Of a DNA stretch of 64,000 bases, positions 15,871 to 64,000 are shown in pieces. The position numbers were made by a program, and so were the translations under genes. Where the stretch lies: sequence record JX560968. One strand, given 5' to 3'. The stretch comes from Escherichia phage EC6. The notes below the pieces were generated by a model, which had not been told where the DNA came from, ran no database searches, and saw nothing but the letters and a program-made list of their open reading frames with translations. Within the stretch, counting starts at the first letter, position 1. Every line of letters starts with the position of its first letter.

Positions 15871-15893
15871 AGGGGCTTTATAGCCCCTTTTAA
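15871..15893 (+). terminator. rho-independent terminator
   Basis: AGGGGCTTTATAGCCCCTTTT hairpin plus T-tract. Confidence 0.55.
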
Positions 15894-18278: not shown

Positions 18279-18357
18279 TCCCTTGTTGACTGATTGTTAA
18301 GATGGTGTTAATATTCTTTATGGGTATTCTCACCATCTTGGCTGATGAGGTGATTAA

Positions 18358-19859: not shown

Positions 19860-20405
19860 TCAAAAGTGTCCTTTTACTTGTGGAACATAAATTTCAAAGG
19901 TTGCTTTACCATCCTCTGATGGTTTTGACTGTACCTTTGTAAATACACGACCATCATACAACTTCTCGAAGAAGTTTTCAAAAGGTAAATGCACAGTGAC
20001 CTCTTCAGTAACTTTATGAAAGACTGTATGGAACACTACATCAGCATACGGTAAAGCATTGACAAGGACACCTGCACCACCAATTACAAAGACATCTTCA
20101 TCAATAGAGCTATCAAGATACTTCAAAAATGCTCCAAATGACTCTTTACTGGCTTTAGCATACATTACACCATCTTTGCCAAAGTCTATGCCTAAGTATG
20201 GTACAGAGTTTGTTAAGATGAGGTTTGCACGTTCTGGTAAAGGTTTACTACCCAGAGTCTTAAAAGTCTCATTACCCATTACCACTAAGTTGTTTTTAGT
20301 GAGTCTCTTAAACTCTTGCATGTCCTGTTTATGTCGAGGCCACGGCATACCAGTTGGAGTACCAAACTCACCATTTTCACCACTTGCAAAGATTAATTTA
20401 ATCAT
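19860..20405 (-). CDS. frd: dihydrofolate reductase
   Basis: 181 aa; MIKLIFASGENGEFG...MPWP, VVMGNETF, LPERANLILT motifs; adjacent to thyA. Confidence 0.8.
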   Translation of the reverse strand: MIKLIFASGENGEFGTPTGMPWPRHKQDMQEFKRLTKNNLVVMGNETFKTLGSKPLPERANLILTNSVPYLGIDFGKDGVMYAKASKESFGAFLKYLDSSIDEDVFVIGGAGVLVNALPYADVVFHTVFHKVTEEVTVHLPFENFFEKLYDGRVFTKVQSKPSEDGKATFEIYVPQVKGHF

Positions 20406-25382: not shown

Positions 25383-25443
25383 ATAACCTCCTATATAAGA
25401 TATTGTATAAGGTACTCTTCCATGAGCACCTTGTCAATACTAA

Positions 25444-33830: not shown

Positions 33831-33859
33831 TTGACAATAGAGTATCAACAAATTAGAAT
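33831..33859 (+). promoter_or_regulatory. sigma70-like promoter TTGACA-N17-TAGAAT
   Basis: TTGACA 33831-33836, TAGAAT 33854-33859, upstream of 33896 gene. Confidence 0.55.
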
Positions 33860-33895
33860 TGGTACTCTTCATAAATTGAGATAGAGGTTTAAATA

Positions 33896-42616: not shown

Positions 42617-43813
42617 ATGAACAAAGTACAAATTATTAAAAAGAATGGCTCACTTGAAGAACCGGATATCAAAAAAGTTTTAGCAGCAGTCACAAAGTCG
42701 GCTAATAGGGTTGGTTATAAAGAGCTTCCACCAGATGTTACTCAAGCTCTTGAGTCAGCATTTATGAGGATTCTGGTAAAATCTACTAAACAGAATAATT
42801 TGCTAATCTCGGTAAATGATATCCACAGTATTGTTGAGGGTGCTTTGGCAGAAGTCAATCATGAGATTTATGAGTCTTACTCAACATATAGAAATTACCG
42901 TAAAGAGGTTGCTCAAAATTGGGATGAGCTTTACCAAAAGACTAAAGACACACTCTTCTTAGGTGACCGTGAAAACGCTAACTTTGACAGTAGTTTAATT
43001 TCTACAAAAGGTTCAATTATTCGTGGTTACCTGACTAAAGAAATCTTTAAACAGTACCATTTAACACCAGAGGAACTTGAAGCCATTGAAAAAGGGTTTA
43101 TCTATATTCATGATTTAAGAGACCTGATTTTTGGTGGTATCAACTGTTGCCTGTTTGACATTGGTAAAGTGCTGAAAGGTGGCTTTGAAATGTCTGGCAT
43201 TGAATACTGTGAACCAAAGTCTGTACTGTCAGCTTTACAGGTTATTGGTGATGTAGTTCTTTCAGCAACTGCACAGCAATTTGGTGGCTTTACTTTAGCA
43301 GAGATTGATAAGGTACTTGTACCGTATGCTAAGAAGTCTCTACGTTACCATGCTGAAAAAGCAACAGCTTATGGTATTCCTAAAGAACATTACCACAACT
43401 ATGTCATGGAGCAGCTACAGATTGAATTAACTCAAGGTTTTCAGTCTCTTGAAATGAAGCTCAATACCGTACCTTGTAGCCGTGGTGATTTTGCATTCAC
43501 AACTTTAACATTTGGTTTACTTGACCCAGACATGTCTAATGAAGACAACCGATTACAATACATGATTGCAAGTACCCTCCTAGATGTTCGTATGAATGGA
43601 CAAGGTAAGAGCAAGAAGCCTGTTGTATTTCCTAAACTGGTTTATATTTATGACCAGAAGAGACACGATGAGAATATCTGTCAAGGACACCTGTACAGTA
43701 AAGCCATTGAGTGTTGCTCTAAAGCAATGTATCCAGATTTCTTAAGTGTATCTGGTCATGGTGCTGTAGCAGAGGCTTTTGAGCGTTCTGGTAAGGTTAT
43801 TTCACCGATGGGT
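42617..43813 (+). CDS. nrdD: anaerobic ribonucleoside-triphosphate reductase, exon 1
   Basis: N-terminal ATP-cone (IIKKNGSLEEPDIKKV); ORF ends ...ISPMG where intron begins with UAA. Confidence 0.75.
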
Positions 43814-44129
43814 TAACAAGCTCTATAGCTCATCTAAAACGTGCCTAAACAGGGAAACTCTACAGATGTAGACAATCCTGTGCTAAATGATGTATGATGT
43901 AAGAAACTATACAACATAGGAGTCTTACATGCCAAATAACTTCGAATATGAGTTTGAATACATCTAAATGCCGAACGACTAACCGTGATGAATGTAGCGG
44001 TGTAGGGTCAAGCGACTCGAAATGGTACGCTACTTAGAAATAAGTAGAAGATATAGTCTGGACTTACTGGCGACAGTAAGCAGCTTGAATAAAGCGGGGT
44101 AAGCTTAGCGAACTTACCTGAACAACAAG
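43814..44129 (+). mobile_element. ORF-less group I intron (about 316 nt) in nrdD
   Basis: Starts UAACAAGCUC right after exon AUGGGU (P1 with intron GCUCAU at 43828-43833); core resembles T4 td-type introns (CUAAACAGGGAAACUCUACAGAUGUAGACAAUCCUGUGCUAAAU; GUAGGGUCAAGCGACUCGAAA; GAUAUAGUCUGG); ends ...CUGAACAACAAG; exon 2 resumes in frame. Confidence 0.7.
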
Positions 44130-48919: not shown

Positions 48920-48928
48920 AACTTTATA

Positions 48929-48950
48929 GGGGGCTTCAAAGCCCCATTTT
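48929..48950 (+). terminator. hairpin with short U-tract (weak terminator/attenuator) between Prs-like and NAMPT-like genes
   Basis: GGGGC-TTCAAA-GCCCC then ATTTTG. Confidence 0.4.
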
Positions 48951-48965
48951 GAGAGAGATTAAAAG

Positions 48966-51322: not shown

Positions 51323-53690
51323 ATGCGCATGGTAAACGACCACGCAGAAGTGATTAAGAGTTCAACTTCTTTAGAGACGTCTCAGGCACAGATTACAATG
51401 ACACCTGAAATGTTCAGCCTTTTGAGTTCTGGTGTATATACCTTTAAAGAAAGGGCAGTCATTCGTGAACTGTCATGTAACGCAGTAGATGCTCAGAAAG
51501 AAGCTGGAAAAGAGAACATCCCTTTCCATGTGCATTTACCTACTCGTTTTGAGCCTTACTTTGAAGTTCGTGATTTTGGAACTGGATTGACTCATGATAA
51601 AGTTATGAGTTTGTATCTAAACTACGGGGCTTCTACGAAGAATGACTCTAATGACTACATTGGTGCAATGGGTATCGGCTCAAAATCTCCATTTGCAATT
51701 GCTCAGTCATTCACAGTATCTAGCTATGTTGATGGTGTTGTTAATAAGTACTCTGTTTATCTTGAGAATGGTATCCCTCAAGTAACTAAGCTGACTACTA
51801 ACCCAATAAAAGAACCTAATGGTTTAGCTGTACGTGTAGCAGTTGCTGACCATCGTATCTCAAAGTTCTTTGAAGAGGCTGGTCACGTATACTCATACTT
51901 TGCTGTAAAACCAGAAAGTAATATCGAGTATGACGATATATTAGCAGATATGAACGTCATTGCCCGTGAAGAAGGTGTTTATGATGCCATGATTCATAAG
52001 CAAAGCTGGCGTTCTAGTGGTAACAGGACAGAGTTTAATGTGGTGATGGGTAATATTGCCTATCCAGTGAACATGGAAGCATTACTTGGTGATGATTTCT
52101 TCAAAGTATTGCCAGAATTTTTCCGTAGGAGCGTAGACCTTGTAAACATCTACATGCCTATTGGTTCAGTTGCTATTGCAGCTTCTCGTGAAGCATTGCA
52201 GATGAATGACACGACAAAAAACTGTTATCATTGAGGCTACTAAAAAGATAACTGAAGCAATTACAAAGGATGTTATCAAGAAAGTTAACAGTCAACCTAC
52301 ACTTATGGATGCTGCACAGGCTTATGCTGAGTTACGTTTGAACTCACGAGAGATGTTTAATGCTGTGTGTCCAAAGCTAGAGTGGGGTGGTGTTAAGCTT
52401 GATTCTCTGGAAGAAGAATTACTAAACATTCGTCGTGGAATTATCTACGCAGAAGACGGCTCAGTTATCTATGAACGTGATGGTAAAGGTAATATTAAGG
52501 TTGATAGGAACGGAAACAATATCCCTAAAGTAGATTATCTTTATAATCCAGTTGCTTATGTTAAGTTCAACTCTTTAGAAAGTAAGATTCGTGCAACAGC
52601 ACTTTCCTACACTCAAGAGGCAAGTATGTTCAATATCTTTGGCGCAATGCGTAAAAGTCAAATTGAACAGTTTTTGTTTGTTATAAACGACCGTCGCAAT
52701 AAAAATGGTACTGAGAAGACTGTAGGACGCAATCAGATTCTGCGTGGTGCATGTCGAGACTATGCCAGTGAGTCTAGTCTGTTTCACAGATACAACGGTA
52801 TCGTCTTTGTATTCTCGACTGAAAAAGAGTTAGACAACCTAATCAATCTGCACAAACTTGATAAAAGCTTGTTAAAGATTGTGAAGATGTCTGATAAGGA
52901 ACATCATTATCAGCGTAAAGAAGCTGTAAGAGGTGTTGTAAAACTTTGGAAAGCTGTTCCAGCAGAAGGTGTAGCTTCATACAAAGAGGTGTCAGAGGAC
53001 TTAGATACGATTGAAGAACCTCAGCTTTACATTAAGGCAATTGGTGACACAGTTGATGGTGAATGTTTTTGCTCATCTCCAGAAGATGTAGCTAAGTCAG
53101 TTGCTAATGTTACAGGTAAGACAGTCTATGTTTTCCGAAAAGCAAATTGGAAAAAGATACCAGAAGATTGGATTGAAGTAGATGAGAAACTCTTGAACGA
53201 CAGCTTAACTGATGTTCACTGGATTAACCATAACAGATATATGACGCGTATCTATATGAATGGTGTCCTTGACCTTACAAGCAGTTGGATTATTGCCAGA
53301 AACTTTACATTCAATAACAGGAAGATTTCTCGTGGTTATTGCTATTCACGGGATACAAACAAAACTATCTTCCTAGAAGGAAATGAAGAGGCTGTAGAGG
53401 CAATGTTCGGTAAAATCCAATACGTTGCTGCACCGTTTGCATACACTTATACTATTAGTAGATTGCAAACTTTGAAAGAATGTCTTGACAACGATACAAA
53501 GCTGTACAAGAAAATCAAGAAAGCTGGTGACCGTATGGTCATTAAGGTGACAAACTACCTTTCAAAAAGAAAACAAGAAAACTTCTTGCTTTCTCATTTA
53601 GATTGGAATAAAGTGTCACCCATCGAAGTGAGTAAGTTCTTGGGCTTTGATGTGAAGTGTGTTCCAGAAGGGACTACAATTTACGATTAA
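51323..53690 (+). CDS. rIIA: rIIA-like protein with GHKL ATPase N-terminal domain; two overlapping ORFs (51323..52234, 52206..53690) joined by a frame change at A6 run 52216-52221
   Basis: Bergerat-fold motifs ELSCNAVDA, RDFGTGL, GAMGIGSKS; combined about 797 aa; followed by rIIB-like gene as in T4. Confidence 0.5.
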
Positions 53691-53769
53691 AGTATTTGAC
53701 AAGGGGCTTTGAAGCCCCTTAAAATAGCATCACAAAATGATTTATTAACTAACAAGAGAGAGTAATAAG

Positions 53770-54879
53770 ATGACTACTAAAACTAAAGCACAGATTGACG
53801 CAGAAATTTACAAACTGGTTAAAGAAGGTAAGCTGACTAAAACAGCTATTGCACAGAAATTTAATACTTCAACCCGTTCAGTCGGTCGTGCTGTAGAGCG
53901 TCATGAAGCAACCTTAAAAGGGAATAAGAAGGCAACTTCTACACCAGCTACGAAGACTTTGAAACAAGTTGCTAAGACCTTTAAGAAGAAAGCTGGAAAA
54001 CCAGTTGAAAAGGTAGTTAAAGACGCTGTACAGAAAGCTCCAGTAAATAAACTGCACGAAGCTATGCAGAAAGATGACAAGATTGAGTACATGATTACTG
54101 GTGACTCTGTAATTATGACTTACGGTTCAGAATCTGAAATTGTTGAGTCTACTCATCCGAACTATCAAGAGATTGTAGTTCATGTTGTGAAAGGTGAGTT
54201 CAAGAAAGCTTTCGAACTGATGAACATTCGTAAATCTATCGAAAACTTCACTCAGGGTGCTATCACAATCAAAGGTGACAAGTTATTCTACGGTGCTGTT
54301 GAGATGCGTTCTACTCTGGTTGACCGTATTCTTCACATGATGAAGACTGGTGATAAAGGTTTTGAACGACTTGTAATGTTCTTCGAAAAACTGATGGAAA
54401 ACCCATCTAAAGACTCTGTAGAACAACTTTGGGGATTTGTATCTCACCTTGATGTTGAAATTGATGAAGAAGGCTACATCATTGGTTGGAAGAAAGTCTC
54501 TACTCGTGAAGGCAAGCTGGTTGACTCTCACACCTACAAAGTACCTAATGATTTGGGTAACATTGTAGAAATGCCACGTTGGATGGTTGATAACAACCGT
54601 AACGTGACTTGCTCTCAGGGTCTTCATGTTGGTGCTTGGGATTATGTCCGTTGCTTCTCAGGTGATACAATTCTGAAGGTTCGTGTCCATCCACGAGATG
54701 TTGTATCTGTTCCGACTGATTACAACGATATGAAGATGCGTTCATCCCGTTATGAAGTTGCAGCAATCGTTGATAATCAACGTAAAGTGTTGAAAGCATG
54801 GGACGGTAAGACTGACGCTTTGCATGTCATCGTTGGCACTGCTGGTGAACTCATCTCTCAACGTAAACGTGAAATCTAA
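53770..54879 (+). CDS. rIIB: rIIB-like protein
   Basis: 369 aa directly after rIIA-like gene; C-terminal region incl. VHPRDVVSVPTDYNDMKMR recalled as rIIB-like (from memory, unverified). Confidence 0.45.
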   Translation: MTTKTKAQIDAEIYKLVKEGKLTKTAIAQKFNTSTRSVGRAVERHEATLKGNKKATSTPATKTLKQVAKTFKKKAGKPVEKVVKDAVQKAPVNKLHEAMQKDDKIEYMITGDSVIMTYGSESEIVESTHPNYQEIVVHVVKGEFKKAFELMNIRKSIENFTQGAITIKGDKLFYGAVEMRSTLVDRILHMMKTGDKGFERLVMFFEKLMENPSKDSVEQLWGFVSHLDVEIDEEGYIIGWKKVSTREGKLVDSHTYKVPNDLGNIVEMPRWMVDNNRNVTCSQGLHVGAWDYVRCFSGDTILKVRVHPRDVVSVPTDYNDMKMRSSRYEVAAIVDNQRKVLKAWDGKTDALHVIVGTAGELISQRKREI

Positions 54880-54918: not shown

Positions 54919-54979
54919 ATTTGTATTTTGTGCAGAGTGCTGTATAATTGTTGTCACGATAAACTAAACAGGAGAACCA

Positions 54980-59334: not shown

Positions 59335-59365
59335 GATACTCTGTAGAATATTCACAATAGACTAA

Positions 59366-59411
59366 GCCTTTCTTATCTGGGAAATCTTTCAGGTAAGGAG
59401 GGCTTTTTCAT
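59366..59411 (+). terminator. imperfect long hairpin with U-tract (terminator-like)
   Basis: AGCCTTTCTTATCTGG...CAGGTAAGGAGGGCT then TTTTTCATTTC. Confidence 0.35.
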
Positions 59412-59592
59412 TTCAGGATTGTGCAGGTAGAGTTCTGTAGAGAAATCTGTAGAGAAAATTTTGAACTCCAAAGAGAAAATTCATTTTCAAACTGTGCAGG
59501 TAATCTCCAAAGAGCTTTTTCATTTTCAAAACGTGCAGATAAAAATCAGGTCGGGCAAGAAAAATCATTTTAGAATTGTGCAGGTAGGTGGG
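59404..59592 (+). repeat. array of four ~26-nt direct repeats (consensus TCATTTTCAAAAnTGTGCAGGTA)
   Basis: Copies at 59404-59430, 59477-59503, 59516-59543, 59560-59590 with 40-70 nt spacing; extra AGAGAAA sub-repeats. Confidence 0.6.
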
Positions 59593-59763
59593 TGTAGGTG
59601 GGGATGTCGCCATTTCTCACAAGGCTACCACATCTGGAAATAAAAGTCAACAGAAAAATTTGTAGCGGATTGAAAAATAATTCTTGATTGTAGTTCTGTT
59701 TTGTGGTAGTCGCGTGCGCCCGTTTCATTACAGTTTTTTGCAAAAATATTTTTAAAATTTTTC

Positions 59764-59859
59764 TTGACTCCTCGAACGGGTTTTTATAGTATTTGCATCA
59801 GACGGGGAGGGAGTGACCTTCCCCACTAAATAACTAACCTTAAACTAGGAGATTCAAAA
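59764..59859 (+). promoter_or_regulatory. promoter + 5' stem-loop + SD cassette (type I variant)
   Basis: TTGACT-N17-TAGTAT, then GGGGAGGGAGTGACCTTCCCC hairpin, then AACTAGGAGATTCAAAAATG. Confidence 0.55.
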
Positions 59860-60240: not shown

Positions 60241-60247
60241 AAAGTAC

Positions 60248-60329
60248 TTTACAAGGGGCTTATAGTTCGATAAAGTAAGCCCCAGATAAAGAGCTTTACC
60301 ACTAAATCCTTAAACTAGGAGATTCAAAA
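60248..60329 (+). promoter_or_regulatory. promoter-hairpin-SD cassette (type II)
   Basis: TTTACA-N17-TAAAGT with GGGGCTTA...TAAGCCCC hairpin spanning spacer and -10; then CCTTAAACTAGGAGATTCAAAAATG. Confidence 0.5.
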
Positions 60330-60842
60330 ATGAAAACTGTAGACGCTACCTTTGAAGTTGTAAAAGAAAAATTTTCCATCATTTACGAAGCGGTTAACTG
60401 CTACGAAGCAAGTCATAGCCTTGATAATTGGGAATTTACAGATAATCATCAAGGTGGTGTTACTGTTAAAAATCCTAACTATCAGCGTAATGAGTTTAAA
60501 TATGCAATCCCTTTACATTACAGCCTGAAACAGCTTTCGAGTGACTATGCAAAACAAGGACGGGCAAATCCATCAAAAGAGGCTTATATCAGCTTACAGG
60601 AAGAACTAGAAAGGGATTTGGAGGCTTCAGAGTATAATATCTCTGCAAAAGTTGTGGATGTAAACGGGAAAACGGTTTTAGACAGCTTTTACATTGGTTA
60701 CGCTTTCGATTGGTGCTACAGTGACGGCGATGATTTAGATGAAAGACTAAAAGAGGAAGTGAACAACGCAGACGCAGAATCTGAAGTATTAGAACGCTTG
60801 GAAGCCTTAAAAGATTCAGTGATGAATATCTTTAAAAATTAA
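60330..60842 (+). CDS. early acidic hypothetical protein
   Basis: 170 aa, acidic C-terminal half (DGDDLDERLKEEVNNADAESE). Confidence 0.45.
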   Translation: MKTVDATFEVVKEKFSIIYEAVNCYEASHSLDNWEFTDNHQGGVTVKNPNYQRNEFKYAIPLHYSLKQLSSDYAKQGRANPSKEAYISLQEELERDLEASEYNISAKVVDVNGKTVLDSFYIGYAFDWCYSDGDDLDERLKEEVNNADAESEVLERLEALKDSVMNIFKN

Positions 60843-61191: not shown

Positions 61192-61281
61192 TTTTGGTTT
61201 TTAAAGCAAGTAAATTACTAATCAACGGGGAGGGGATGACCTTCCCCACTAAGTAAAACCCTTAAACTAGGAGATTCTAAA
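61188..61281 (+). promoter_or_regulatory. promoter + 5' stem-loop + SD cassette (type I)
   Basis: TTGATT-N17-TAAATT, ACTAATCAACGGGGAGGGGATGACCTTCCCCACTAAGTAAAACCCTTAAACTAGGAGATTCTAAAATG. Confidence 0.55.
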
Positions 61282-61554: not shown

Positions 61555-61559
61555 AGTAC

Positions 61560-61641
61560 TTTACAAGGGGCTTATAGTTCGATAAAGTAAGCCCCAGATA
61601 AAGAGCTTTACCGCATTAACCTTAAACTAGGAGATTCAAAA
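61560..61641 (+). promoter_or_regulatory. promoter-hairpin-SD cassette (type II)
   Basis: Near-identical copy of 60248..60329. Confidence 0.5.
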
Positions 61642-62046
61642 ATGGCTATCAATAAACGCGAATTATCAATTTTAAAAGCACGTTTGACCGTTAACCGGAT
61701 TAATGTTATTACGTCATCAGCACCAGACGAGACACTGCAAAACATTATTGGGAAGATTCAAAGTGTTATCTTAGACGTTGAAAGCGTAAAAAACTCACTG
61801 ACTGACGTTGCAGCAGGTATCACCTTAAACGGTGCACAATATGAAATGGCTGACATGTTAGGCAAATCTAAGGTAATGAATAAAGAGCTTGATTTGAAAA
61901 TGTTCAGATTCGCCGTAAAAGTATGGTTATCCGTCGATTATGACGCAAATTTTGCAATCGCTGACTTTTTCGCAACATGGTTACAACGTAATTTGACAAA
62001 TCACGATTTTCGTGATATCTGCGATGCAATTTATGCAGAACTTTAA
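61642..62046 (+). CDS. early hypothetical protein
   Basis: 134 aa. Confidence 0.4.
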   Translation: MAINKRELSILKARLTVNRINVITSSAPDETLQNIIGKIQSVILDVESVKNSLTDVAAGITLNGAQYEMADMLGKSKVMNKELDLKMFRFAVKVWLSVDYDANFAIADFFATWLQRNLTNHDFRDICDAIYAEL

Positions 62047-62061
62047 AAAAAAAAACTTTTG

Positions 62062-62156
62062 TTGACACTGGTTTTTAAATAGATTAAATTGTCAATCAAC
62101 GGGGAGGGAATGACCTCCCCCACTAAGTAAAACCCTTAAACTAGGAGATTCAAAAA
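62062..62156 (+). promoter_or_regulatory. promoter + 5' stem-loop + SD cassette (type I)
   Basis: TTGACA-N17-TAAATT; hairpin GGGGAGGGAATGACCTCCCCC (compensatory T-to-C change gives a perfect stem). Confidence 0.55.
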
Positions 62157-62357: not shown

Positions 62358-62365
62358 TAAAGTAC

Positions 62366-62447
62366 TTTACAAGGGGCTTATAGTTCGATAAAGTAAGCCC
62401 CAGATAAAGAGCTTTACCACTAAATCCTTAAACTAGGAGATTCAAAA
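62366..62447 (+). promoter_or_regulatory. promoter-hairpin-SD cassette (type II)
   Basis: Third near-identical copy (TTTACAAGGGGCTTATAGTTCGATAAAGTAAGCCCC...). Confidence 0.5.
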
Positions 62448-62990
62448 ATGAAATGCTTTCACGGTACTACTCAAGAAAACTTCACCAACCTGATTAATAA
62501 CGGCGATAAGCCATCAGGTGCATGGAATTGTTCGGATATGGACGGCAATTTTTACGTGTATCCAGAAAATAAAATCTATGGCGACGATGCGGAAGAGATA
62601 GCATCCGAAGGTATCCAGCAAGCTCTGGGCAATGCCACTATCACCGCAGCTTTCCAGATGAAAACTCAAAACATTGTTATCTTGGAACTTGATATTCCAG
62701 AAGACGAGTTAAATGATGATTATTCTTGCGATAATATGTCTGGCGTGGCAAGTTTTACGGAATATTTCGATTTAAACTGGATTAAAAAGGTTTACACCAC
62801 TGAATTTAATGCCATGTTTTCACCATTTTGTCTGCCTTCACTGGATAACCCGAATTTAAACTATATTGATGAGTCTCTGGAACTCCTCGCTAAAAGCGTT
62901 CAACAGTCCGACAGTATTCAGGTTTTTTGTGACATCATGGACACACTGACGGAAAACATCATAGAAAGAGATTTGAAGGGCTTTTTCTGA
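62448..62990 (+). CDS. early acidic hypothetical protein
   Basis: 180 aa, Asp/Glu-rich. Confidence 0.4.
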   Translation: MKCFHGTTQENFTNLINNGDKPSGAWNCSDMDGNFYVYPENKIYGDDAEEIASEGIQQALGNATITAAFQMKTQNIVILELDIPEDELNDDYSCDNMSGVASFTEYFDLNWIKKVYTTEFNAMFSPFCLPSLDNPNLNYIDESLELLAKSVQQSDSIQVFCDIMDTLTENIIERDLKGFF

Positions 62991-63290: not shown

Positions 63291-63380
63291 ACAAGCCGGA
63301 TAAAAGTCTGTAAATTACTAATCAACGGGGAGGGGATGAACTTCCCCACTAAGTAAAACCCTTAAACTAGGAGATTCAAA
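63288..63380 (+). promoter_or_regulatory. promoter + 5' stem-loop + SD cassette (type I)
   Basis: TAGACA-N17-TAAATT overlapping upstream stop; GGGGAGGGGATGAACTTCCCC hairpin. Confidence 0.5.
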
Positions 63381-63783: not shown

Positions 63784-63852
63784 TGTTCGAGGGGGTTTAT
63801 CTTAAAGGGATTCACTTAAAAGATTTCTTTAAAGATAAACTTAAAAAATTGC

Positions 63853-63946
63853 TTGCAATCAGATATCAAAACAAGTAAATTACTAATCAACGGGGAGGGA
63901 ATGACCTTCCCCACTAAGTAAAACCCTTAAACTAGGAGATTCTAAA
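63853..63946 (+). promoter_or_regulatory. promoter + 5' stem-loop + SD cassette (type I)
   Basis: TTGCAA-N17-TAAATT; GGGGAGGGAATGACCTTCCCC hairpin; AGGAGATTCTAAAATG. Confidence 0.5.
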
Positions 63947-64000
63947 ATGAACAAATTTCAAGCTATCAACTATATTCGTTCCGTCAATGTCATGTCTAAA
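63947..64000 (+). CDS. early hypothetical protein (3' end outside window)
   Basis: ATG after type I cassette; reads MNKFQAINYIRSVNVMSK to window end. Confidence 0.35.
   Translation, partial: MNKFQAINYIRSVNVMSK

Follow-up and report, generated by a model that had tools for sequence, protein, structure and literature searches.

Architecture of the rIIA/rIIB junction

The DNA analysed here, hereafter the window, is a stretch of 64,000 nucleotides from Escherichia phage EC6 (JX560968), a Felix O1-like myovirus (Felixounavirus) that shares 96-98% identity with phage NBEco005 and many other phages. The element under study lies in the 79-nt gap between the rIIA and rIIB genes, as named in the NBEco005 annotation, which extends from the rIIA stop codon (TAA, 53688-53690, + strand; open reading frame (ORF) 52206-53690), set within the AT-rich lead-in TTAAAGTAT, to the rIIB ATG at 53770 (+ strand; ORF 53770-54879). 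A 30-mer, TTGACAAGGGGCTTTGAAGCCCCTTAAAAT, occurs a single time in the window (53696-53725, + strand) and resolves into two boxes separated by an 18-nt spacer, TTGACA at -35 (53696-53701) and TAAAAT at -10 (53720-53725; TAGAAT in most relatives). It matches the sigma-70 consensus at 11 of 12 positions and ranks among the three best sigma-70-like sites across 44-64 kb. An 8-bp hairpin with a loop of 4 nt, AAGGGGCT-TTGA-AGCCCCTT (53701-53720, + strand), fills the spacer exactly, starting on the final base of the -35 box and ending on the opening base of the -10 box, with an RNA fold energy of -13.8 kcal/mol and a z-score of -3.1 relative to dinucleotide shuffles. Standard sigma-70 geometry predicts a transcription start at the A in position 53732, 7 nt past the -10 box, followed by a Shine-Dalgarno (SD)-like sequence, AAGAGAGAG (53754-53762), and the rIIB start codon (53770-53772). 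An earlier note on this DNA, made from the letters alone, had described a promoter-like element at 53697 with a hairpin in its spacer; the sequence is real, with its true start one position earlier, at 53696, and the placement of the hairpin within the promoter spacer holds.

We also observe that rIIA is split in the window into two ORFs, 51323-52234 and 52206-53690, which overlap at 52206-52234. The frameshift (~52221) consists of one additional C after an A6 run as compared to NBEco005 (ACAAAAAACTG versus ACAAAAAATG), and is due to a sequencing error or to a genuine rIIA mutation. In the latter case, the rIIB promoter would keep rIIB expression independent of rIIA translation.

Recurrence within the window

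The element belongs to a family of related sequences. TTTACAAGGGGCT is found at 60248, 61560 and 62366, in what we refer to as type II cassettes, the repeat finder assigns 53678-53709 to the same family (D5) as these three sites, and a 21-nt lead, AAAGTAYTTKACAAGGGGCTT, is common to all four, confirming the resemblance pointed out previously. Exact GGGGCT-N4-AGCCCC hairpins are located at 15872, 48930 and 53703, and five matches are present when up to two mismatches are allowed, against 0.43 expected; similarly, TTKAYANGGGGCT yields nine matches against 0.70 expected. GGGGCTT itself occurs 12 times where 2.0 are expected, ten of them in the intergenic DNA that makes up 8.5% of the window.

The combination of promoter and hairpin was assessed with a strict composite test, demanding a hairpin without mismatches, at least 6 bp long and entirely contained in the spacer of a good promoter. 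Two sites in the window pass as compared to 0.2 per shuffle, with at least one match in 19 of 100 shuffles, and the rIIB site alone is therefore only mildly unusual; accordingly, the weight of the case lies in recurrence and conservation. Promoter-like words matching at least 9 of 12 consensus positions are frequent in general, 78 in 20 kb against 54 expected. Promoter-like sites fold better in intergenic than in coding DNA, with mean z-scores of -1.45 and -0.15, respectively.

Conservation of the promoter boxes and the hairpin

To follow the junction across relatives, rIIB loci were taken from viral contigs, giving 28 loci down to 76% rIIB protein identity. The -35 box is present in all 28 (TTGACA, with TTGACT in one), and the GGGGCT...AGCCCC stem and TA(G/A)AAT are likewise kept down to 76% identity, while the sequence 5' of the -35 box and 3' of the -10 box diverges. 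In a more distant group of relatives the spacer measures 17 nt, which is the optimal length. The hairpin loop varies between TTGA, TCAA, GCAA and GAAA, the last two being GNRA-like. Since two-sided changes are never seen in the GGGGCT/AGCCCC core, the support for the rIIB hairpin comes from conservation, loop variation and distant relatives, rather than from classical covariation.

Relatives at 60% identity have a different stem, AAGTGGTC/GGCCACTT, around the -10 region, and those at 53-58% identity have the hairpin GGGGCTG-GAAA-CAGCCC, with an extra G-C pair, without recognisable hexamers. The two halves of the element can therefore exist apart. As a hairpin is kept in these distant relatives (53-60%), it appears from the sequences to be the older feature of the junction, around which promoter boxes were presumably wrapped within Felixounavirus.

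The centre of the rIIB hairpin (53709-53712) occurs in close relatives in two forms, GGGGCTT-TG-AAGCCCC and GGGGCTT-CA-AAGCCCC, that are exact reverse complements of each other, and the hairpin at 48930 of the window has the CA form. By their sequence, the two forms look like products of inversion or strand switching at the centre of the palindrome.

Type II cassettes

The three type II cassettes of the window are all on the + strand. The cassette at 60241-60329 comprises TTTACA (60248-60253), a hairpin (60255-60283), the -10 box TAAAGT (60271-60276) and a shared SD block ahead of the ATG at 60330; that at 61555-61641 has TTTACA at 61560-61565, the hairpin at 61567-61595, the -10 box at 61583-61588 and the ATG at 61642; and that at 62358-62447 has TTTACA at 62366-62371, the hairpin at 62373-62401, the -10 box at 62389-62394 and the ATG at 62448. 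The hairpin arms, GGGGCTTA and TAAGCCCC, are separated by a 13-nt loop that contains the -10 box, TAAAGT, 17 nt past TTTACA. For the copy at 60255-60283 the fold energy is -18.2 kcal/mol (z = -4.2).

A pattern scan with a fixed 3' arm recovered 109 copies from ~25 related phage contigs, with between one and nine copies per recovered contig stretch. TTTACA served as extraction criterion and is consequently found in 109/109 copies; TAnnnT follows 17-18 nt downstream in 108 of the 109, in the form of ten different hexamers, among them TAAAGT, TATCTT, TAAGAT, TAGTAT, TACCTT and TATGAT. Such fixed spacing amid varied hexamers is the pattern expected if a working -10 box were located in a free loop.

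The stem was analysed by a script anchored on both stem ends, the MAFFT alignment having misplaced shorter copies at the 3' end. All 45 distinct variants form a stem of 7-11 bp with loops of 7-15 nt. Pair 5 is C-G in 26 and T·G in 19 variants, pair 7 T-A in 37 and A-T in 8, pair 8 A-T in 35, T-A in 6 and G·T in one, and pair 9 is represented by five pair types. A second scan was anchored downstream of the stem, with TTTACA required as a filter against chance matches; among the matches listed, the 3'-arm changes are solely C-to-T and lead to G·U-type pairs. As these pairs hold only in the sense strand, being A·C in the complement, they point to a sense-strand RNA hairpin, and the selected structure is most simply taken as a hairpin in transcripts arriving from the upstream gene. 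Together, more than 100 natural variants indicate that the same short stretch is under two constraints, as a promoter and as a hairpin in sense-strand RNA. Both halves thus appear to be under selection, the boxes through their fixed spacing amid variation and the stem through compensatory and wobble changes.

Expression timing and gene differences

Transcript timing in Felix O1 provides modest evidence in favour of independent promoters, in the form of end-point reverse transcription PCR: the maximum is reached at 10 min for ORF2 (rIIB) and at 25 min for ORF1 (rIIA), while ORFs 16 and 20, directly past the 57-bp repeats that correspond to the type II cassettes, peak at 5 min and ORF19, just upstream of ORF20, at 25 min (PMC3185647). 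Other genome papers on Felix O1-like phages solely give BPROM and TransTerm predictions.

Cassettes also mark gene differences. Three single ORFs of NBEco005, at 81215-81421, 81980-82237 and 82930-83226, are additional to those of the window, and cassettes are located at both boundaries for two of them and at one boundary for the third. The rIIB copy is at no indel border, gene order being conserved among the relatives compared.

Comparison with known systems

The closest counterparts are the combined promoter and stem-loop cassettes known as PeSLs (promoter-early stem-loops) in the T4-like coliphages RB49 and phi1, which are positioned between an upstream stop codon and a downstream SD sequence among small genes of unknown function, and which mediate gene shuffling (PMC2839356, PMC4122927). 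In that system, one such stem-loop reduced lacZ expression downstream to an extent comparable to rrnB T1, whole cassettes acted as very strong promoters, and a crossover in RB49 has been located to the loop (PMC2839356). The phi1 PeSLs that we read directly include AAAAGTTGTTGACA-GGGGATCACCGATCCCC-TATACT, with a TTGACA -35 box, and TTGACAGGGGATCGGGAGATCCCCTATAAT, without T-run, as well as one with its -10 box in the loop, GGGAGTA-gtaaga-TACTCCC. The order of parts agrees, from stop codon through an AT-rich lead-in, TTGACA, stem-loop and TAnnnT to SD and ATG, as does the stem-loop with its G-run and C-run, which fills the spacer or overlaps the -10 box with no T-run thereafter. Here, the rIIB element and the type II cassettes share the lead-in AAAGTR, resembling AAAGTTG/AAAGTG of phi1, and the rIIB element runs from its stop codon, with AAGTAT in the lead-in, to SD and ATG without leaving intergenic DNA. 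Boxes about 17 nt apart, a stem-loop between or overlapping them, repetition amid small genes of unknown function and a position flanking the single-gene indels that distinguish close relatives are common to both systems as well.

There are also differences. The phage studied here belongs to Ounavirinae, Felixounavirus, and not to Straboviridae, thus departing from the reported distribution of PeSLs in T4-like myoviruses, which is not a mechanistic feature; in the literature searched, the PeSL papers concern T4-like phages and none ties PeSLs to Felix O1-like phages. The stem is GGGGCTT/AAGCCCC as opposed to GGGGATC/GATCCCC, and the rIIB copy is single, positionally conserved and in a core region, whereas the RB49/phi1 cassettes occupy a hyperplastic region. 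Moreover, the latter are backed by reporter, mini-circle and recombination experiments, while our phage is known here from sequence alone. The PeSLs of T4 and PST have the form TTTACW-N17-TAYWAT, similar to TTTACA-N17-TAnnnT of the type II cassettes, and the same work on T4/PST and KVP40/nt-1 describes degraded 'half' elements, consisting of a -35 box and a stem without a -10 box, which the site at 15872 resembles (PMC4122927). In contrast, the PST stem-loops are just upstream of the promoter and not inside it, and the stem consensus in T4/PST and KVP40/nt-1 differs from ours (AGNA...TCNT and A3-4G3...C3T3-4; PMC4122927).

The intrinsic terminators of the studied phage itself (AGGCTCC-TTCG-GGAGCC-TTTTT; 50762, 54896 and 56689) share with the rIIB and type II hairpins a GC-rich stem and, with the rIIB hairpin, a tetraloop, a few bases past a stop codon. 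They have UUCG loops and T-runs of 4-6, whereas the rIIB and type II hairpins are followed by TT or no T and are flanked by promoter hexamers. Among the structured RNA families of Rfam, none matches at 53.6-53.8 kb or in the type II cassettes at E values up to 1.

Inverted repeats inside promoters are known from other contexts. The early promoters of phage N4 that are used by its virion RNA polymerase are extruded DNA hairpins, recognised by the phage-encoded polymerase and devoid of sigma-70 boxes, and a cruciform-regulated E. coli promoter with an inverted repeat inside it was reportedly described by Horwitz and Loeb. The wobble asymmetry detected here argues against such a two-strand cruciform. 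An N4-type hairpin promoter is rejected, as consensus sigma-70 boxes are present and Felix O1 is reported to encode no RNA polymerase of its own, and apparently no protein altering the promoter specificity of the host polymerase (PMC3185647). On the same grounds, the suggestion of a phage-specific signal, raised in the earlier note, finds no support, the boxes being plain sigma-70 consensus.

Proposed mechanism and alternative explanations

Based on the anatomy, recurrence and conservation described above, we propose that the rIIB element is probably a PeSL-type cassette, i.e. a sigma-70 promoter fused to a read-through RNA hairpin that serves as an attenuator or a 3' barrier. The cassette would begin with the upstream stop codon and comprise two functional parts. 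The host sigma-70 promoter (TTGACA, 18 nt, TAAAAT) would give rIIB its own transcript from ~53732. The hairpin would be absent from RNA initiated at this promoter and form solely in read-through RNA from rIIA, ~10 nt past the rIIA stop codon. There it would most likely insulate the junction, attenuating or ending read-through and/or protecting the upstream message with a 3' hairpin, and the promoter would then set rIIB expression independently. The type II cassettes would represent the same device with the -10 box placed in the loop, and, being repeated, may also function as recombination points for the gain and loss of small early genes.

Several observations weigh against this proposal. The 18-nt spacer of the window is slightly above the optimal length. 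The rIIB hairpin is followed by UUAAAAU and the type II hairpins by AGAUAAAG (DNA AGATAAAG), and as there is no U-tract 3' of the stem, canonical intrinsic termination is not predicted; in line with this, the rIIB hairpin is not in the terminator scan list. The part of the Felix O1 terminator table consulted contains no rIIA/rIIB terminator (PMC3185647). A C·A mismatch is present in the GGGGCT/AGCCCC core of two loci (L002 and L029), the core lacks two-sided changes altogether, and the 53-58% relatives have the hairpin without hexamers. Finally, the literature searched holds no transcript 5' or 3' ends and no RNA-seq for Felix O1-like phages, and we therefore infer both promoter and terminator activity, the latter by analogy to the RB49 reporter experiment. 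The idea put forward in the earlier note, that one element could both terminate upstream transcription and start a new transcript, hence survives in part: it corresponds to the published PeSL model and both halves appear to be selected, but efficient termination is not expected with UU or no U after the hairpin.

The lack of a U-tract would also fit the hairpin being solely an RNA 3'-end barrier or stabiliser, with the polymerase reading through and the processed hairpin shielding the rIIA or other upstream early message from 3'-exonucleases, and with the overlap with the promoter due merely to the short intergenic space. The location of the hairpin 10-15 nt past the stop codon at every site, the G·U-type variants and GNRA-like loops, which indicate RNA, and the distant relatives that keep the hairpin without promoter hexamers all fit such a role. 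The RB49 stem-loop without T-run, however, reduced its reporter approximately as rrnB T1 did, an effect beyond that of a passive barrier (PMC2839356), and we consider an exclusive barrier function unlikely, though worth serious attention. Quite improbable, in our view, is that the inverted repeat acts in DNA, either through cruciform or hairpin extrusion that switches the promoter in a supercoil-sensitive manner, or mainly as a recombination site. The repeat does lie inside the promoter, so that extrusion would destroy or expose the boxes, the reverse-complementary loop centres TTTGAA/TTCAAA of close relatives are what strand switching at a DNA palindrome yields, the RB49 crossover falls inside the loop (PMC2839356), and cassettes are found at indel borders. 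Nevertheless, a cruciform needs both strands, while the T·G pair of 19/45 type II variants is A·C on the bottom strand, and loops of 7-15 nt in the type II cassettes and up to 23 nt in other composites make extrusion costly; a role in recombination, in turn, is compatible with the PeSL-type cassette without replacing it.

The promoter half can be questioned as well, if the hexamers are fortuitous, and rIIB is transcribed solely from upstream across an inter-cistronic hairpin in AT-rich DNA. The abundance of promoter-like words (78 versus 54), the shuffles with at least one composite match (19/100) and the hairpins without hexamers in distant relatives speak for this, yet TTGACA and TA[G/A]AAT persist at the correct spacing in 28 relatives despite diverged neighbours, the type II -10 box varies in ten ways with TAnnnT kept at 17-18 nt in 108/109 copies, and in Felix O1 the transcripts of rIIB and of genes that follow type II cassettes reach their maximum earlier than those of the genes upstream, leaving the explanation very improbable. 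Least probable of all is that the GGGGCTT/AAGCCCC palindrome is an operator, through which a dimeric phage or host protein shuts the promoters off after the early phase. The same half-site recurs at several promoters with strong conservation and without two-sided changes in the core, and symmetric outer changes would keep a dyad, too. But the half-sites are separated by 2 nt at rIIB and by 7-15 nt in the type II cassettes, which one dimer could not span alike, the one-sided C-to-T changes break the dyad while keeping RNA pairing, unrelated stems are found at the same place in other promoters, and the same stem is used in plain terminators at 15872 and 48930.

Returning to the PeSL-type cassette, a broader version may be put forward tentatively, and with less confidence than for the rIIB element itself: promoters with embedded hairpins may not be peculiar to T4-like phages but constitute a junction module that is general among virulent enterobacterial phages and possibly exchangeable, in which ~30 nt are selected at once as sigma-70 promoter DNA, as sense RNA hairpin and as a handle for recombination by which small early genes are moved. 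In that case, the TG/CA flip of the loop would record strand switching at the palindrome.

The Felix O1 study stated that it was not known how transcription passes the many terminators and restarts, and how its timing is achieved, and listed the 57-bp repeats just as direct repeats (PMC3185647). Reading these repeats and the rIIB element as promoters with stem-loops yields a concrete map of early transcription units in a phage group that is in wide use for typing and biocontrol of Salmonella and E. coli, and explains the whole-small-gene differences between close relatives at 59-64 kb. The kind of signal is already known, the PeSL idea being extended to a second myovirus lineage, and the 109 natural copies represent a ready mutational series on the effects of spacer hairpins at sigma-70 promoters.

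Other hairpins, composites and cassettes

Two further hairpins share the rIIB stem. AGGGGCT-TTAT-AGCCCCT followed by TTTT (15871-15892, + strand) and GGGGCT-TCAA-AGCCCC followed by ATTTT (48930-48950, + strand) are terminator-like and have no -10 box. They had been grouped with the rIIB element in the earlier note, at 15871 and 48929; the stem is indeed common, but the promoter-like element is not. As candidate promoters both were rejected, given the missing -10 box and the T-runs 3' of the stem, and TTTACA/TTTATA ahead of the two hairpins was also dismissed as a -35 box, not being kept upstream of the nicotinamide phosphoribosyltransferase gene in the 74-75% identity group. Judged by sequence, they look like ordinary intrinsic terminators. 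At the equivalent of 48920-48965, some relatives (L035-L038, L053 and L054) have another gene before the nicotinamide phosphoribosyltransferase gene and lack the GGGGCT hairpin, so that an indel border appears to coincide with the hairpin junction.

Composites of promoter and hairpin with unrelated stems are present elsewhere in the window. At 18286-18339 (+ strand), TTGACT, 17 nt and TAATAT are combined with a 9-bp stem, AAGATGGTG/CACCATCTT, that brackets the -10 box (-19.2 kcal/mol, z = -4.5). At 33831-33868 (+ strand), TTGACA, 17 nt and TAGAAT are found with the stem AGAGTATCAA/TTGGTACTCT around most of the -10 box, including one G·U-type pair, and the last base of the -10 box pairs in the 3' arm. 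A third composite, after the DNA polymerase gene (25383-25443, - strand), has the hairpin AGTATTGACAAGGTGCTC-ATGGAAG-AGTACCTT (-16.4 kcal/mol, z = -3.0) and the same lead-in, AGTATTGACAAGGTGCT, as the rIIB element. A second promoter-like sequence with its spacer filled by a hairpin (AACTTCT-TCG-AGAAGTT) is TTGAAA-ACTTCTTCGAGAAGTTG-TATGAT at 19952-19981 (- strand), located within the final codons of the gene that precedes dihydrofolate reductase.

Two contigs of uncultivated phages, L116 (87 kb) and L122 (61 kb), neither of which has a megablast match to any GenBank phage, contain an identical composite, TTGACA-AGGGGCT-N4-AGCCCC-TAYAAT. The individual sequences are TTGACA-AGGGGCTGCAAAGCCCC-TACAAT in L116 (reverse complement, ~5495) and TTGACA-AGGGGCTGTGAAGCCCC-TATAAT in L122 (reverse complement, ~3063), each past a stop codon and before SD and ATG. 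These composites hint at a spread beyond Felixounavirus.

Between 59.7 and 64 kb, the three type II cassettes are interspersed with five type I cassettes (59764-59859, 61192-61281, 62047-62156, 63291-63380 and 63850-63949), the flanking genes all being 'hypothetical' in NBEco005; the rIIB copy is solitary and in a conserved region. Type I cassettes have a sigma-70 promoter, e.g. TTGACA, 17 nt and TAAATT, with an A-rich tract upstream, and a hairpin, GGGGAGGG-AATGA-CCTCCCCC, in the 5' leader ~10 nt past the -10 box, and they share the SD block CCTTAAACTAGGAGATTCAAAAATG with type II. From the two layouts it follows that each early-gene junction has one G/C-run hairpin just before or after the predicted start.

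Directly before this early cassette region, a unit of ~31-38 nt that ends in CATTTTCAAANYGTGCAGGTA is present in four spaced copies (59399-59587) within a ~525-nt non-coding stretch (59335-59859), and a related sequence, TTTTGTGCAGAGTG, is located near 54925, past the rIIB terminator. Candidate roles for these sequences are iterons, an origin, a feature of the genome end or a further promoter class. Lastly, a group I intron (Rfam RF00028; 53.6 bits versus a gathering score of 50, E = 2.7e-12) is detected at 43756-44080 (+ strand), in a 394-nt non-coding gap of the anaerobic ribonucleotide reductase (nrdD) region.

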